From Octopus sinensis (lineage: Eukaryota): a stretch of DNA of 64,000 nt. The stretch covers positions 18,352,001 through 18,416,000 of the forward strand of contig NC_043002.1 in NCBI RefSeq assembly GCF_006345805.1, in the 5' to 3' direction. Below, piece by piece: positions 1,071-63,400 of the stretch. The notes below the pieces were generated by a model. It searched no databases, was not told the origin of the DNA, and saw only the letters and a program-made list of their open reading frames with translations. Position 1 is the stretch's first letter. Each line of letters begins with the position of its first letter. The translations under genes and the position numbers were made by a program.

Positions 1071-1671
1071 CGCTTTCTAGATCAGAAGGCACATACCCAT
1101 GGTGCCACTTACCCAAAAACACTGACGATGAAGCCACATGTTTACAAAGTGAGCTGCTAACCCCCCATTACATTTAACAGAGTTTTGATTTCTACCAGAT
1201 CAAACAATTTCGGCGCGTTATGTCGTTTGTTAAAATACATTTTGGCTTTTGTACCGATTTCTTGCGATTTAAATTCAAATCGCACCTCTGCTTTCAACCA
1301 TTTGGGGTCTAACAAAAAGGACCAATTCAAAGCGGTGGATTGGCAGAAATATTACAACGCTGGAGATGATGCCTTGTGGTGTTTATTCCGGCTCCTTTAA
1401 TTCAATGGTGACCTGCAAAACACATTCCTAGAATCCAGTAAAACGAAATTTAGAAGTCACTCTTAATCTTAACCTTTGCCTTGCAAAACTTCACACGCAT
1501 ACGCACGCATACACATACCTACTTTCACACATACATACATCTTTTATCTTTTACTTGTTTCAGTCATTGGACTGCTACAGAACCTTCTCGAAGGTTTTAG
1601 TCGAACAAATCAATCCCAGAAGTTATATTATTTTTAACATTTGATAGATGTTTGTCCTCATCTTGTTTGTT

Positions 1672-1718
1672 GTTAAAACGTTTCGGCTGACATACCCTCC
1701 AGCCTTCATAAGTGTCTT
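1672..1718 (-). ncRNA. Degenerate hammerhead motif (left-arm copy)
   Basis: rc: GACAC-TTATGA-A-GGCTG..CAGCC-GAAACGTT. Confidence 0.55.
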
Positions 1719-1771
1719 GAGTAAATTTCGAACCTGGTTTCACATTCCTATGGTATTTTTCGATGTTATTG

Positions 1772-1827
<56 letters not shown>

Positions 1828-1990
1828 GAGTGAGAGAGCAGTGCATATTATTATTATTATTATTCAGGTCACTGCCTGGAATCGAACTCGGAACCTTGGG
1901 GTTAGTAGCTCGCGCTCTTAACCACTACTCCATATGCCCGTGGGCATATGGCGTAGTGGTAATGAGAATCCAGATTCGAAATTTCCCCCA

Positions 1991-2040
1991 AGATACCTGA
2001 AGAAGGATGGAGGGTATATCAGCCGAAACGTTGTGTGTTA
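1991..2040 (+). ncRNA. Type-I hammerhead motif (right-arm copy)
   Basis: GATAC-CTGAAGA-A-GGATG..CAGCC-GAAACGTT^GTGT; palindromic stem III; the other arm restores stem II to GGCTG/CAGCC. Confidence 0.7.
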
Positions 2041-2419
2041 ACAACAAACAAGATGAGGACAAATATCCGTCAAATGTAAATAATGTAAATAATGTACATA
2101 ATTCCTCATCTCTTAAATATAGAACTATGTTTTTTTTTAAGTTTCATTCTTATTTTGTCGAAATCTTTTGCCGAATCGCTAAGTTTCGAAGACGTAAACA
2201 CAACATCACCAGCTATCAAGCTGTGATGGAGGACAAATCCACACACAAAACTTCACATACATATACGTACGTATACATATACACGATGGGCCTCCTTCAC
2301 ATTCCTTTTAACAAATCCACAGTGTGGGATTGAACCCGAAACCTTGTAGTTGGCAGGTAAACTTCTTACCACATAGCCTCTGTGGTCTAAATTATGCGGA
2401 GAGGAAAATAACACTGACG

Positions 2420-3220: not shown

Positions 3221-4589
3221 TATATATGTATGTATGTATGATGTATGTATGTATGTATGTATGTATGTATGTATGTATGTATGTAGGTATGTATGTATGT
3301 ACATATTACAGCTGTCCCCTACAGGACATTGTAAGTATATACGTTCATGCGTACATGCATATATGAATACATAATGCACATGTACCTAAATACAAACAAA
3401 CATACATACTTAAGTCTCCATTTATCCAGGCAGCACAATTCTTACTCTTGACGCCATTCCCCACGAAACCTTTACAAAATAATACAAGCAAAGATTCCCT
3501 TCCGAGATTCATTTACTAAATGGATTTAAAAATTTTTGTCCTCTTTAAACAACACCAACAACCACATTACTCTGTTAGCACTTAAGGCCATACATAAGGA
3601 AGTCAATTTTTTTCTCATTTTGTTAACCCGAGGCTAATACTTCAACATTGCACGGTATAGCTACTTTATGTAGTAATGGCTGCATTAGGAATTGTAAGAC
3701 CAACCGACTGCTCTTCACCACTTAGCTGATAGAAACTATTATTTTTCTCTTTCCACTGAATTAAGATGGTCTTTGAAAGTATGTAACACTCACTATGGTA
3801 CTGGTTAATGTAATTTCACACCTTATATTTAGACAAACATATTTAAACATAGTACTTTGTATAGTAAAATATTTATATATGTTGTCGTGTTTACAAATGG
3901 TGGTTCGAGTCCCACTGGGGACCAGCCAAATGCTATTATTTGTAGATTTATCTATTTCAGGTTCCATCGTTAAACTCGATATATCTATATATTTTTATTG
4001 TTATTCAGCTGTACTTCAGCTCTAATTAACAAAAGCCTTCTCTAACAACAAATTCACAAAAGCCTTCTCTAACGACTATCTTTTCTTTCCCTTTAACTTG
4101 GTACATCATCCAGTGTGCTTTCCTTTATATAACTGTAAATTAAAGTTTTCCCGCAATATCAATTAATACATTATTCACCATTTCCTGTGTATGGGAGAGA
4201 ATGAATTTTGTTTAGTCATATGACAAACGGACACACGTCATTGAAAATACATTTAGAAGGTCGAAACGCCTCTGTTACTCTTGTGACTGACTTGCGAGGT
4301 GATGCTGGCATCGTTCCATTGTATATGTCTTTTTTTTAACATACATCTATAAAGATACGTTTCCTCAGACAAAATTCATCACGCCATTCAATGATATATA
4401 CACGTCAAGTATTGTACACGGTTGTCAGTTCCAGTTTTCATCTTTTTATTTATTTCATTTAAAACGTACAAAGTCTGTTTAATAATTTCCCAAAAATGCC
4501 TTACTCATTTTCAAGTCTGTTGGTTGATTGGCTGGTTGGTTGGTTGGTTGGTTGGTTGGTTGGTTGGTTGAGATCTGCAGTCAGGATTT

Positions 4590-29992: not shown

Positions 29993-30411
29993 TTCTTATT
30001 TCTTTATTGCCCACAAGAGGCTAAACATAGAGGAGACAAACAAGGACAGACAAACGGATTAAGTCGATTATATCGACCCCAGTGCGTAACTGGTACTTTA
30101 TTTATCGACCCCGAAAGGATGAAAGGCAAAGTCGACCTCGGCGGAATTTGAACTCAGAACGTAACGGCAGACAAAGTACCTATTTCTTTACTACCCACAA
30201 GGGGCTAAACACAGAGGGGACAAACAAGTACAGACAAAGGTATTAAGTCGATTACATCGACCCCAGTGCGTAACTGGTACTTATTTAATCGATCCCGAAA
30301 GGATGAAAGGCAAAGTCGACCTCGACGGAATTTGAACTCAAAACGTAACGGTAGACGAAGTACCGCTAAGCATTTCGCCCGGCGTGCTAACATTTCTGCC
30401 AGCTCGCCGCC
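29993..30411 (-). mobile_element. Family-A SINE dimer within a single TSD
   Basis: TATGTACTTGCAT on both sides of the dimer. Confidence 0.9.
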
Positions 30412-31229: not shown

Positions 31230-31920
31230 TTTCTAGCGAAGTAACATTCCAGATGGGGTATTAGGATTAAGTATTACAAGGTACAGTCTGAGAAATTGTT
31301 GACGTACTAGTTCATCCATTACTTCATTGTTCGCCTTTTTTAGGCCCTCTTAAAAGTATCGACAAAATGTTCCACTCGTTCATTTGACCTAGGATGATAC
31401 GGAGGAGTGATTAAATGTTCGATAACGAACATTTTACAAAACTTTTTTGACTCGTCTGAAGTAAGCTGAGTTCCATTATCAGACACAATGTTATCATGAA
31501 TACTAAATCTAGCGAACAATTCGTGTAAAAAACTAACTGTGACAGGGGATGTCGAATTTTTACACTTATGCACTTCAGGCCACTTAGAAAACCTGTCCGC
31601 CACAACAAGGTAGAAACTGTTAAGAGGCCCTGCATAATCAACGTGCAGTCTGGACCATAAAACATCTGTTTTTTGGCCACGGTTGCCATTTTGTGGTAGG
31701 TGATTTTACTGCTAGCGCACAACCTCTACATGCTTTCACAAGTTCTTCAAAGTCACAGTCCATTCTTGACCAATATCCATAACTTCTCAATAACGATTTC
31801 ATTCCCGAAATCCCTAGGTGACAAATGAGAAATTCCTTTTGCAATCGCTTCTGTAGTGTGGCTGGCACTACGACTCTTTGTGCGCAGATTAACACATTAT
31901 CACAAATTGGAAGCATGTTC
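31230..31920 (-). pseudogene. Gypsy-type LTR retrotransposon integrase fragment
   Basis: HLGISGMK..CRGC zinc-binding region; VSDNGTQL, PPYHPRSNERVEHFVDTFK catalytic core; frameshifted. Confidence 0.9.
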
Positions 31921-32239
31921 GAATTTATGTTGCGTTTAGCAAAACAAATATTTTCAGTTGAAATCTTAATTGCAAAGAACTTTCAAAACCACATTTTGAT
32001 GAAAAAAATGAAAATTTGGAATTTTTAAGAATTTTCTTGACAGTGTAGACTTTAATGATTGATTTTTTTTTTGTAAAAGTTACATTCTCATAACTAATTA
32101 ATAAGAAACTTACTTTAATTATAGTAGATGTAGTAGATGTTCTGTTTCGTGTAATATTTTTATAGTTTTACTAATTCAAAGCCAGTCTTCAAGTAACTGA
32201 GCATCATCTTGGAAACTCTTGGAAATGTTGCTTTCAAAG

Positions 32240-33366: not shown

Positions 33367-33728
33367 GTTGCATAGCCTAGTAGTCAGATTGTTTTTCTCA
33401 TGGTCATATGATTATAAGGAAAGCAGTTCAATTTCTAGACTGGGCAATACGCTGTGTCTTTGAGCTAAAACCTCTCCGCCCATCTTTCAAAACCTGGATG
33501 TTCTGCTAGATCAAGAGTTAGAGGGCTGAGAAGGTATCTATGTCAGCTAACGGCCTCCTAAGCACCTAAAACGCAAATTTAACGAAAGCATGGTACATGT
33601 TACTAGTTCATATCCGCTTGCGAGTGATGGTTGAGTTTATAGATACGCACGCACGCGCACGCACACACACACACATATATATATTTATATATTTATTTAT
33701 TTATTTATTTATATTTATATATAATGAA

Positions 33729-34059
33729 GGCGCATGGCTCAGTGGTTAGAGCGTCGAGCTTACGATCGTGAGGTTGTGAGCTTGGATCCCGGACCGGGCT
33801 GCGTGTTGTGTTCTTGAGCAAGACACTTTATTTCACGTTGCTCCAGTTCACTCAGCTGTAGAAATGAGTTGCAACGTTACAGGTGCCAAGTTGTACCGGC
33901 CTTTGCCTTTCCCTTTATAATACTGGTGGCGTGGAGAGGGGAGGCCGGTATGCATGGGCGACTGCTGGTGTTCCATAAATAACCTAGCCCGGACTTGTAC
34001 CTGGGAGGGTAACTTTCTAGGTGCCATCCCATGGTCTGTGTCGTGACCGAAGGGGGTCT
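33729..34059 (+). mobile_element. tRNA-SINE family C
   Basis: TGGCTCAGTGG A box; CTTGAGCAAGACACTT; TCACTCAGCTGTA; second copy at 60880 (-). Confidence 0.85.
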
Positions 34060-34060
34060 T

Positions 34061-34131
<71 letters not shown>

Positions 34132-34312
34132 TGTATGTATGTATATGTATTTTTAAAGAGCTAAAAAAAACACTATGTGGTCAGCCATATACTAGAAGTA
34201 GATCACCTACGATCAAACTACAAAGAAAAGAATGTTCTCTAGAGAAAAATTCAGCAGACACCAGAACAATATGCGGGCAAGACAGATGAAAATTATATAA
34301 AAAACAAGAATT

Positions 34313-34392
34313 AATCGCTGACCAGCGGTTTCGCCTATTAACGAATAAATTACTTATGCAACCCTTCGTCCGTAGGACTCGTCAGTGCGATC
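34313..34392 (-). ncRNA. Type-I hammerhead with extended stem II (copy 1)
   Basis: rc: GATCGCA-CTGACGA-GTCCTA..ACGAAGGGTTGC ATAA GTAATTTATTCGT..TAGGC-GAAA-CC GCT GG-TC^AGCGATT; intact core. Confidence 0.85.
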
Positions 34393-34402
34393 GTTCCACA
34401 AG

Positions 34403-34457
<55 letters not shown>

Positions 34458-34638
34458 TGTATGTATGTATATGTATTTTTAAAGAGCTAAAAAAAACACT
34501 ATGTGGTCAGCCATATACTAGAAGTAGATCACCTACGATCAAACTACAAAGAAAAGAATGTTCTCTAGAGAAAAATTCAGCAGACACCAGAACAATATGC
34601 GGGCAAGACAGATGAAAATTATATAAAAAACAAGAATT

Positions 34639-34718
34639 AATCGCTGACCAGCGGTTTCGCCTATTAACGAATAAATTACTTATGCAACCCTTCGTCCGTA
34701 GGACTCGTCAGTGCGATC
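34639..34718 (-). ncRNA. Type-I hammerhead with extended stem II (copy 2)
   Basis: Same sequence as copy 1. Confidence 0.85.
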
Positions 34719-34728
34719 GTTCCACAAG

Positions 34729-34774
<46 letters not shown>

Positions 34775-35237
34775 CGCCGCCTTACACAGCATATATTCAT
34801 TTCGTAAGGTGGATGTCAGAATCGTGAGCACACAAAGGAAAATGCTTTGCGGGATTTCATGCGTCTATATGTTCTCAGTTTAAATTCCGCCGAGGTCGAC
34901 TTTGGCTTTCGTCCTTTCAAGAACTATATAATAAGTACCAGTATACCACCGGGGTTATAGGACGAAAGGCAAAGTTGATCTTGTAGGATTTGAACTGTGA
35001 GGGAATAAAGCCAATCTGTTCGACGTTCTAATAAGTCTACCAGTTGGCTGCCTTACACGGATATATACACAATTGCACATACACACACACACAAACAAAA
35101 CAAACACACACACACACATATATATATACATACACATACACACAAATAAATACGCATAAATAGAAGCTTATACGGTGTTCTCTTAATCTCACACCATTTG
35201 TAACAGTGAAATTAACTACACTAATACTCATCCGACC

Positions 35238-41628: not shown

Positions 41629-42337
41629 TATTTTAGCGTGCTTTCACTTCACTACCGAGCGCAGCTCTGTGTGCCTTGGGTATGTGCTGTGATTTTTTGT
41701 GATGCTCTGATGGTTATTGTATGGAAAGTGTTCTGCGTAGGATGTGTGCAGTGCCTAGTAGTGCAATTTTCTGTATGTTATATGTGTTTGTAAGTCCTGG
41801 TGTTTTTGTTATGTATTTGTCTGAATATTTTTTTATCATGCCTAATGCACCTACTATGATAGGAATTGTTTCTGTTTCAGATTCCACATTCTAGTTACCT
41901 CTATTTCCAGGTCTTTGTATTTTGAGAGTTTCTCCATTTCTTTTAGAAACACGTTGTCATCTGCCGGTACTGATACATCAATTAGAAAGCATTTTTTTCT
42001 TCATGGTCTCTGACAACTATATCTGGTCTGTTGGCCTTAATTTCTCTATCTGTGTGTATCGGCATATCCCAGAGTATGGTTGCTTTCTCGTTTTCTGTGA
42101 CCTTTTCTGGTGTGTGCCTATACCATCTTTTTTCTGTTGTTATTCCATAATGTTGGCATAGCTTCCAATGTATGTAAGTTCCAACTCTGTCATGTCTGTG
42201 AATATATTCCTTCTTAGCCAGGACTGGGCAGCTAGAGATAATATGATTTATTGTTTCTTGTCCATCTCCACATATTCTGCAGTTATTTGTAATATTTCTT
42301 TTCATTACATGTTTTTGGTAATTTCTGGTGGGGAGGC
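41600..42337 (-). mobile_element. 5'-truncated Dong/R4-like RLE non-LTR retrotransposon in a (TAA)n tract
   Basis: CRICGDGQETINHIISSC knuckle, RHD, NRPDIVVRD, KYKDL, ..GTAHILRRTLS*; TAA repeats at both ends. Confidence 0.85.
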
Positions 42338-42375
42338 TTATTATTATTATTATTATCATTATTATTATTATTATA

Positions 42376-42426
<51 letters not shown>

Positions 42427-42539
42427 AATAATAATAATAATATCTTATTTTCTATTTGTATGTATGTATGCAAACTGATCTTCAAACTGATTTTCTTGAA
42501 CGTTTCCTAAGCAAGGGTGAGTGTTGGGTTCATTACTTT

Positions 42540-46369: not shown

Positions 46370-46815
46370 ATTCCAAATTTTGGCACAGAACCAGCAATGT
46401 GGAGGGCGTGGCAAGTCGATTACATAGACCCCACTACTCAACTGGTACTTATTTTATCGACCCCAGAAAGAATGAAAGGTAAAGTTGACCTCAGTAACAT
46501 TTGAACTCAGAATGTAAAGAACCGGAAGAAGTGCTGCTAAACAATTTGTTCGGCGTACTTATGATCCTGACAGCTCGCTGCTTTGATGGACTGGAATAAT
46601 AATTCTTCTATAGACAAAAGGCTTGCAATTTCAGAGGAAGGTTTAGTTGATTACATGGACTCCGATGCTTAAATGGTAGTTATCTTATCGATCCAGAAAG
46701 GATGAAAGGGCAAAGTCGACTTTGGTGGCATTTGAACTCGGAACATAAAGAGCCAGAAGAAATATCACTCAGCATTTTGTTCGTCGCGCTTACAATTCTG
46801 CCAGCCCGCTCACTT
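46370..46815 (-). mobile_element. Two older family-A-related SINEs
   Basis: TTTGAACTC and GAAAG..TGAAAGG..AAAGT.GAC each occur twice. Confidence 0.7.
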
Positions 46816-47689
46816 CATGGACAGGAATAATAATGAGAATAAAAAAAATATCGTTTGAGTTAAAAAGTTTGGTGATTATAAACGGTTCTGTGTACTCTAG
46901 AGTATCCTATGAGAAAATATTAATCTATTTAAAATATTGAAAATCTTTAAAAACTTAATACTAAACATTAAATTAATATTGGATATTAAATTAATATTAA
47001 ATATTATTATTGAATATTAATATTAAATATTATTATCCAATTTCAAATATTACATATTAATAATAAATATTAACATTAAATGAATATTAAAAGGTAACAA
47101 AGAGGAAAAGTGTGATAACATAAAAACTAATTAAATGTATCATTTACACTCCATCTTTTAAACTTTAACAACGTGCAGATGAAGAAAATGGACATATCCA
47201 CAAAAACATGTAAAAGTATACATGAAATATATGAATAATATTGTGACCACGAAATTTTATTATAAAACTGCAAGGAGATTTTATTTCTACGAAAAATAAG
47301 AGAACACACGAAAATGCACAACTTCTCCTGACAAACAGTTTTATCCAACATTTTAAGATTACTTCTTTTATTCATAAAAATGTTCGAGTAAAATTGAAAA
47401 TGAGTCTCAATATATTTCGTAAAAGGAGTTAAAGTCTTCTGGACATCACTGTACCGAGCTGTAGGGTTAACAGGATTGGGTATGACGTATGTGACCGGGA
47501 TCAAAACATTCTTCTGCCACTGGAAGCCAGTCCGTCGCAGGGTTGCTCATTTTCAGCTGAGTCGGCAGAGTAAAGTGAAGTTTTATACTCAAGAATACAA
47601 AGCACTGCCTGGCCCAAGAATCGAAACCACTAGGCCACTCGTCTTCACAAAAGAAACTAAAAGCAACGTGAAAAATATTCTAATCAAAG

Positions 47690-60879: not shown

Positions 60880-61203
60880 TGACCCCCTTCGGTCAGACAC
60901 TGACCATGGGTTTGCACATAGAGAGTTACCCTCTGAGGCACAGGTCTGGGCAAGGTTGTTTTTTATGGAAGACCAGCAGTCGTCCATGCATACCGGCTTC
61001 CCCTCTCCACGTCACCGATGTTGTCCAAGGGCTGATACAGCTTGGCACCTGTGACGTCGCAACTCATTTCTACAGCTGAGTGAACCGGAGCAACGTGAGA
61101 TAAAGTGTCTTGCTCAAGAACACAACACACAACCCGGTCCGGGATTCGAGCTCACAACCTCACGATCGTAAGCTCGACGCTCTAACCACTGAGCCATGCG
61201 CCT
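60880..61203 (-). mobile_element. Family-C SINE
   Basis: rc of the 33729 copy. Confidence 0.85.
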
Positions 61204-61518
61204 TCACATAACCTATAAGTATAGTGGATGAAATAATTAGAAATCGTGCAATAGATAGAGAAATTACATGTATATAGGAGTAAAGAAAGAAATTACATTA
61301 AATAAAGGGGTAAAATAGTTAAATGTTGAACTACGAACACAGAGACACGAAGGAAAAAATTCATGCATAGCGATATATGAAAAAAAATTAATCACTACGA
61401 GATGGAATGTATAAATATATATATTTGTGTGTGTATGTATGTAAGTGTGTATGTGTGTGTGTATACATACAATATCGAACATACATACTGAAGGTATCTC
61501 CCGCTGCGAGATGAAACC

Positions 61519-62337: not shown

Positions 62338-63400
62338 TCATAATTCTGGGTTGTCTTGTATCTTGTCTGCATGACTCTGTCCTTTTAATTCCTCTGCTGG
62401 TACTTCCACTGGTAAATTTTCTCCGTTTCTCGTCGTGGGTTGAGGTTCTTCTTCCATTCCTTTACACTTCTTTACTTCAACCGTCGTCGGTGACTTTCTT
62501 CTTTCTCTTTTCCTGGGTTCTCCCTCCACCAAATTCCAATTATATTCTGTTCTCTGCGCCTGCTTTTTTTCCACCACTATATCTTCCTGTACACTCTCTT
62601 CCATCATTTCTACTGTTACTCTAGGGCATTTCCTTCTCAGGTGCCCTCTTTCACCGCATCCGTAACATTTTGGGGGTATCCCCTCTAACATTACTTCCAG
62701 TTTTTTCAGCATATGGCAATTCCACAGTTTCCGCCATTTTGTCGTAATATTCTGGGCTTACAGCGCAAATTACTTCAATTCCATATCCCCAACAATTCAA
62801 ATGTTGAGTTCTGCTTACTATGCAAATGTTCAGGTTTTCACTTCCCTTCACCAGCTCTGAATTAAATATTGCGACTATTACCCATTCTGGGTCTATCGAC
62901 GGTGGGATCCTTCCCACCCTGACCCTTACGATTCTTTTGCCCAAACAGTTCGGCACCAACGTCCATTTCTCTCCCAGTATCAGTCTGTTATTATTTATTT
63001 TCGCCTCCTCTTCTGATGCAAAGGTGACTATTATAGTCGCGTATTTCCTTCCTCTTGTAAAGAAAGTTATTCCATCACCCATTTGTTCCTTCAATATTTC
63101 CTCTATCTCTTCCTACGGTGCGTGTTCTATTCTCCTATTTACATTCGAAAATGTTCTGAATATAACCGTCTTGTTTTCCATTTTTCTCTTTTTCCTCCCT
63201 GGCAGGATCATCTTTATATTTGACCCTTCCTTTTTTACCATATCATAATATTTGGCTATCTTCTTCTCATTCCACTCCATCCTCCCCAGCTTCAGCACAC
63301 GTGGGTCTATGGCATCTCAACCTCCAGTAGCTTCTGCGTAACTATTCATGTTTTCAATTGTTTCTCTACCACTCAACGCTGGTGGTTTCGCACAAACATT
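62338..63400 (-). pseudogene. Gag-like ORF1 of a Tx1/L1-type non-LTR element, frameshifted
   Basis: RRM-like segment, RVRVGRIPP, CCHC knuckle CYGCGERGHLRRKC, charged tail; three consecutive ORF pieces. Confidence 0.75.

Follow-up and report, generated by a model that had tools for sequence, protein, structure and literature searches.

A tandem pair of hammerhead-bearing repeat units in Octopus sinensis, probably the locally duplicated end of a Penelope-like element

A head-to-tail pair of hammerhead-bearing units on the minus strand is one locus of a large, high-copy repeat family that carries a hammerhead motif. As judged from its sequence, this family probably stems from a Penelope-like element (PLE) that targets (TA)n, being either its 3′ end or a short derivative. 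For the pair itself we consider it rather probable that an aged PLE 3′ end or short derivative, lying in (TA)n, was duplicated at the DNA level through the flanking (AT)n. A live ribozyme, a circular RNA and an RNA-borne seeding of microsatellites at this locus, as proposed in the original prediction, are unsupported.

The window, i.e., the whole analysed stretch of 64,000 nt, contains the two units with a period of 326 bp (Table 1). Pairwise comparison of 34405-34730 with 34079-34404 revealed no mismatch in 326 positions, unit-to-unit identity spans 34079-34768 and TRF reports 2.1 copies, its period agreeing with the two identical 326-bp units described originally. The order is (AT)21, body, compound tail, (AT)19, body, identical tail and (AT)26. 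The expectation of a uniform dimer thus holds for the bodies and compound tails, which are identical in both units, and not for the pure (AT)n runs, which comprise 21, 19, and 26 repeats. The unit has a G + C content of 31.6% and is non-coding; in the body of unit 1, long reading frames arise only by way of the microsatellite.

Table 1. Features of the tandem locus, its hammerhead segments and the flanking repeats (positions in the window).
Feature	Position	Strand	Remark
(AT)21	34731..34772	-	upstream of unit 1; likely target site
Unit 1, non-repetitive body, 251 nt	34480..34730	-	member of the high-copy repeat family
Compound A5/(ATAC)n tail, unit 1	34443..34480	-	same in unit 2; differs in other family copies
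(AT)19 at junction	34405..34442	-	putative duplication breakpoint
Unit 2, body	34154..34404	-	identical to unit 1
Compound tail (34154-34117) and (AT)26 (34116-34065)	34065..34154	-	end of unit 2
Hammerhead 1, type I	34639..34718	-	segments listed below
Helix I, 5′ strand	34718-34712	-	
CUGACGA	34711-34705	-	
Helix II arm, 46 nt	34704-34659	-	closed by G-C
Helix II tip hairpin	34673..34690	-	window: loop AUAA, 4 G-U pairs; family majority: loop GUAA (GNRA), 2-3 G-U pairs
GAA	34658-34656	-	
Helix III, 3 bp and 3-nt loop	34655-34647	-	
C17 of GUC	34646	-	
Helix I, 3′ strand	34645-34639	-	A at 34645 breaks pair 2.1/1.1
Hammerhead 2	34313..34392	-	identical to hammerhead 1; C17 at 34320
Dispersed repeat, flanking	33720..34062	+	86% like 60881-61206; outside the element
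Abundant dispersed repeat fragment, flanking	34814..34960	+	18 other matches in the window; outside the element

On the minus strand, CUGACGA starts at 34711 in hammerhead 1 and at 34385 in hammerhead 2, and the two C17 sites (34646 and 34320) are 326 nt apart. The complete core CUGACGA/GAAA/GUC, the 3-bp stem III and the long stem II of the original prediction could all be located in each unit, in agreement with the type I core (CUGANGA, GAAA and NUH, with G10.1-C11.1 and A15.1-U16.1). The predicted strand dependence was likewise confirmed, as GGGUUGC/GUAAUUU contains four G-U among its seven pairs and pairs on the minus strand, not on the plus strand. The A:A mismatch described beside the core in stem I was found at 2.1/1.1 in both units, where six of the seven helix I pairs are formed.

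Within the long arm, a GUCC-UAC-GGAC hairpin followed by GAAG (34691-34704, minus strand) imitates a canonical helix II and competes with the arm; its predicted probability is 0.12 with the majority letters of the family and 2.6e-4 with the window letters. Little variation is listed for this stretch in the family. By eye, a nested hammerhead built on the short GUCC/GGAC stem has G at 15.1 and a mismatched helix I, and was discarded as a candidate for the active fold.

Set against chance, the motif alone counts as weak evidence. The core pattern has three matches in the window against a shuffle mean of 1.62, and three or more were obtained in 23 of 100 shuffles; core and helix I combined also match three times, with at least one match in 42 and at least two in 5 of 200 shuffles. 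No Rfam match at gathering level was obtained in the window, Hammerhead_1 scoring 25.3 bits against a cut-off of 34 (E 0.0027). The miRNA and pestivirus rows of the Rfam search were dismissed as AT-repeat noise far under their cut-offs. The reality of the motif therefore rests on the family, whose majority letters give seven of seven helix I pairs and a palindromic helix III.

The family was sampled from public sequencing runs using contigs aligned to one unit, for four of the 24 listed runs, these four carrying three organism labels. In total, 1,891 contigs (657, 757, 367, and 110 per run) were aligned, mostly at 90-99% identity, with about 76% of the data covered for run X1. Part of the unit is present in contigs of 22 of the 24 runs, which derive from nine studies and four organism labels. 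Run X7, guessed to be RNA, also holds the family, with the window letters at 34645 and 34685 at depth 0, where contigs show presence and not absence. Pattern scans with the 3′ motif gave no match in metagenome and viral contigs; the core motif gave one match in metagenomes and none in viral contigs or prokaryote genomes. This sole match (L001) was rejected as a relative, as no likeness could be seen by eye outside a 22-nt core stretch. L001 reads CUGACGA-GUCC-UAC-GGAC-GAAG at 3340-3385 of its minus strand, followed by a short GUC site, and has G at the expected A15.1.

At seven positions (34517, 34582, 34645, 34650, 34683, 34685, and 34688), drawn from 9 of the 40 rows of the variant table, at least 80% of the depth differs from the window letter in all four runs. 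All seven rare letters are carried by both units; three are transitions in CpG context and five lie inside the ribozyme. The family pair at 2.1/1.1 is A-U in 87-100% of the depth in all four runs, so that with majority letters A2.1-U1.1 is restored, and helix II is capped by GUAA. Because the majority letters differ, two of the four G-U wobbles, like the A:A mismatch, are rare changes and not part of a design. At 34645, 6-13% of the DNA-run depth is not the majority letter, partly due to a deletion variant; the A of the window is rare in the family and not necessarily unique.

Helix III of the family reads ACCG-C-CGGU with a variable centre, a 4+1+4 palindrome, of which a GAAACCGGUA variant was seen at a loose end. 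In another loose end the 5′ strand of helix I contains an A, which would pair with a C-to-U variant at 34643 if the two are linked. Among the loose ends listed, the 3′ ends of other copies run on into (AT)n or (AC)n, hence the tail is not a fixed part of the element. Upstream of the unit, 9 nt of non-TA sequence were seen in three X1 contigs among the loose ends listed. X1 record 8 (16 differences) begins after TA at the same point as the window unit, which indicates that a short element with a fixed boundary, rather than a random truncation, may account for the 5′ end. Taken together, the contigs cover the 3′ part 17-35 times more deeply than the ribozyme. Truncation from the 5′ side would leave such a bias, but this is a hint only, contig depth not being copy number. 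An opposite-strand joint was present in one of the 1,891 contigs and a head-to-tail joint in none, where a long (AT)n junction would break contigs.

The original prediction had called the pair retrozyme-like. This stands insofar as a type I hammerhead lies in a repeat of retrozyme or Penelope type and the operational definition of a non-LTR retrozyme applies, with at least two consecutive units of 150-450 bp, complete type I motifs, a G + C content below 45-50% and no coding capacity; it does not extend to the canonical geometry or to a self-paired circle. Animal non-LTR retrozymes as described in PMC7229834 and bioRxiv 10.64898/2026.07.22.740005 share the non-coding unit of about 300 bp with a G + C content below 45%, the single type I hammerhead per unit and the head-to-tail dimer. 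In contrast to them, the pair has a non-canonical geometry, a predicted circle without unusual self-pairing, a long (AT)n junction and a broken 2.1/1.1 pair. Canonical retrozymes have a helix II of about 4 bp and a contact between loops 1 and 2, whereas the helix II arm here comprises 46 nt. It has been argued that retrozymes themselves derive from the pLTRs of PLEs, including by local amplification (bioRxiv 10.64898/2026.07.22.740005).

A PLE origin is suggested by the type I hammerhead about 165 nt from the 3′ end of the unit, the palindromic helix III, as in PLE 3′ ends or pLTRs, and the (AT)n on both sides, as expected for the (TA)n targets of the Hydra, Neptune, and Naiad clades. For the Hydra clade, PMC8557442 gives a 4+1+4 helix III in most hammerheads and insertion in (TA)n for nearly all families; the unit resembles this clade in its type I motif near the 3′ end, its 4+1+4 odd palindrome AC...GU and its insertion in (TA)n. 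Compared with the Hydra-clade motifs listed there, the 46-nt helix II of the family is clearly longer, with internal loops and a GNRA tip. The core search of that study used a spacer of 7-17 nt and set cases of 35-50 nt aside as ‘half core’. Minimal PLE hammerheads and the Drosophila virilis variant, as presented in PMC4209133, share the palindromic helix III implying dimeric action, G10.1-C11.1, a bulged long helix II, mostly single dispersed motifs and a high variability within the genome. Unlike minimal PLE hammerheads, the unit has G10.1 directly after CUGACGA without an extra nucleotide after A9, a helix I of 7 bp plus an outer stem, and a far longer helix II.

PLEs reportedly account for 6.83% of the Octopus vulgaris assembly and fall into 190 families there (PMC13282606). 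Identity with one of the published octopus elements Naiad_Ovul (‘HHR_half_core’), Naiad_Obim or Hydra-1_Obim was rejected, as their 3′ ends showed no match to the unit by eye; Hydra-1_Obim also differs in that no coding frame was seen by the unit. Short sequence terms from the unit gave no match in the accessible text of the PMC8557442 supplement. No RT or GIY-YIG frame attached to the unit was found in the family contigs, in which 9 nt of upstream non-TA sequence were seen. Literature searches outside Repbase, Dfam, the octopus repeat library and preprint supplements, which may hold the family, returned no description of it; the 46-nt helix II, of which no printed description was found, is its mildly interesting part.

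For the origin of the pair, a Penelope-like protein would have nicked (TA)n and reverse-transcribed RNA from its 3′ end, leaving (AT)n-element-(AT)n. Of the seven sites given above at which the locus departs from the family majority, one costs helix I its pair adjacent to the cleavage site; another makes the palindromic helix III weaker, and with a third the GNRA loop is lost. As both units share these seven rare letters, three of them in CpG, they point to ageing in DNA before the duplication, which leaves a rolling-circle dimer unsupported. The upstream and downstream (AT)n would then have mispaired, by unequal crossover or slippage, copying body and compound tail once and recently. The simplest account is that one insertion aged and was then duplicated between its flanking (AT)n, either in the cell or by the assembler.

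The latter possibility, an aged monomer whose second copy is an assembly duplication from overlapping (AT)n runs, is in our view unlikely and is the best of the alternatives. It would explain the absence of differences over 326 bp, and PLE insertions are known from PMC8557442 to disturb assemblies. Furthermore, the window letter at 34685 has a depth of 43.3 in X1, 6.7 in X8, and 0 in X2, whereas seven of the eight single long contigs listed at this position have depths of 32-49 in X1 and seven of the eight listed have 5.2-7.5 in X8, so that the window allele is near the depth of a single contig in both X1 and X8, as the preferred reading would also have it. X8 record 32 matches 34651-34740 with two differences, crosses the upstream TA and continues for 138 nt with no joint listed; this unbroken link of the unit start to upstream sequence suggests one copy of the unit in that sample. 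However, a heterozygous dimer would equally give single-copy depth in X1, and the sampled animals may not be the assembled individual. The three AT runs are unequal in length, and the 64 kb contain no N and many resolved long microsatellites, which suggests long reads and argues against an assembly duplication.

Still less likely is a joint insertion of both units by Penelope machinery, with the tandem or circular RNA of a rare, previously mutated subfamily as template (an insertion of the partial-tandem pLTR or of the retrozyme type). Head-to-tail insertions of PLEs and their non-autonomous derivatives are described in PMC8557442 and PMC11167929, and according to the latter hammerhead cleavage is dispensable for insertion in vitro. 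Two of the seven changes are A-to-G on the RNA strand within a duplex, as editing would leave. On the other hand, X1 and X8 show the 34685 window letter at roughly the depth of one contig, which gives no sign of a subfamily; three of the seven changes are CpG transitions, and the locus-specific compound tail lies inside the duplicated block. The lack of head-to-tail joints in the 1,891 contigs also speaks against it, weakly, since a long (AT)n junction breaks contigs. The two A-to-G changes are located in the helix II tip (34685 and 34688, and correspondingly 34359 and 34362), where A-to-I editing before reverse transcription would leave them; they are indistinguishable from ordinary mutation.

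That the pair is the best candidate for a live ribozyme in the window could not be upheld, since A:A at 2.1/1.1 departs from the A-U of the family, and, according to a review (PMC3138052, citing Werner and Uhlenbeck 1995), hammerheads mismatched directly 3′ of the cleavage site are slowed at least 500-fold. Both ribozymes are consequently predicted to cut poorly. The palindromic helix III is predicted to form a self-duplex of -10.2 kcal/mol with the majority letters and of -6.8 kcal/mol with the window letters, against +0.4 kcal/mol for the monomer hairpin. The hammerhead fold is disfavoured in both versions (P 1.2e-6 for the window and 7.7e-5 for the majority letters), so that the prediction of a loss draws chiefly on the published figure for a mismatch at 1.1; the fold figures rank the two versions without demonstrating activity. 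A core-trapping helix formed by the A at 1.1 was rejected, as that duplex has -9.4 kcal/mol in all three versions.

It is accordingly improbable that the pair is a live retrozyme dimer which is transcribed, cleaves itself at both sites, releases an RNA of 326 nt in linear or circular form and spreads (TA)n/(TATG)n. Every core nucleotide is intact, the size of 326 and the G + C content of 31.6% suit the non-LTR retrozymes of PMC7229834, and two copies permit a dimeric helix III, at the -6.8 kcal/mol given above. Apart from the mismatch, however, the predicted 326-nt circle (-63.0 kcal/mol, z -1.27) is not unusually self-paired, with 6 of 60 shuffles folding as low, and both cores are predicted to be paired in the full dimer transcript. 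In Xenopus, eight of nine predicted dimers failed to cleave (bioRxiv 10.64898/2026.07.22.740005). The tails also differ among family copies, and as other copies end in different repeats, the proposal that the microsatellite is RNA cargo is unsupported. The terminal ATAC beside (AT)n could nucleate a compound repeat by DNA slippage.

Intact family members may act differently. By analogy with published Penelope and newt ribozymes, on which the proposal is modelled, two ACCG-N-CGGU strands would pair into an 8-bp helix III, and the resulting double hammerhead would cut a tandem precursor. PLE hammerheads are described as cleaving weakly, as dimers or with the help of protein (PMC4209133; PMC11167929).

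The surroundings are those of a repeat-rich animal genome with retroelement fragments. The left-hand flanking repeat (33720..34062) is presumably a tRNA-derived SINE, and the right-hand fragment (34814..34960) is also taken by us to be a SINE; ARAGORN detected no tRNA genes in the window. The view of the (TA)n as a tail belonging to this left-hand repeat finds no support, as the other full copy of the repeat ends without one. Retroelement fragments at 31340-31982, 41982-42506, and 62338-63112, all on the minus strand, contain integrase core and zinc-binding domains, an RT-associated zinc finger and a zinc knuckle. Two-copy tandems of the abundant dispersed repeat are located at 29997-30364 and 46414-46834 (periods of 184 and 231, with 91 and 75% matches), which indicates that local duplication of short repeats is common in the window.

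A second repeat forms an inverted pair at 1623-1732 (minus strand) and 1975-2130 (plus strand), with 82% identity over 117 nt and (TTA)n in between. It carries a minimal type I hammerhead-like motif with an extra nucleotide after A9 and a palindromic helix III and resembles inverted Penelope ends. Its plus copy satisfies the core and helix I descriptor; Rfam gave no match.

An origin of the family outside PLEs, for example as a LINE-dependent short element that acquired its hammerhead separately, is highly improbable: it would account for the missing coding partner, the lack of a match to the three published octopus PLE ends and a helix II unlike that of minimal PLE hammerheads, but PLE ends are matched by the type I motif some 165 nt before the 3′ end, the palindromic helix III, the GAAACCGGUA variant and the surrounding (TA)n.

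Earlier publications already describe (TA)n targeting, short tandems of hammerheads and the presence of hammerheads in Penelope-type ends. For the family, as distinct from the tandem locus, a more far-reaching reading is conceivable and in our opinion doubtful: it could be a short ribozyme element, fixed at both ends, non-autonomous and so far undescribed, which a Penelope-like protein moves into (TA)n, with a 46-nt GNRA-capped helix II, a competing GUCC-UAC-GGAC-GAA hairpin as a possible off switch, abundant circular RNA from intact members and A-to-I edits of the long arm fixed in the genome by retrotransposition. Descriptors with a short spacer would overlook the long helix II of this family, and ‘active dimers’ defined by descriptors may be two copies of one damaged motif. 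With the reading that we prefer, an inserted PLE end duplicated locally, the locus would neatly illustrate one of the routes by which retrozyme arrays are proposed to arise.
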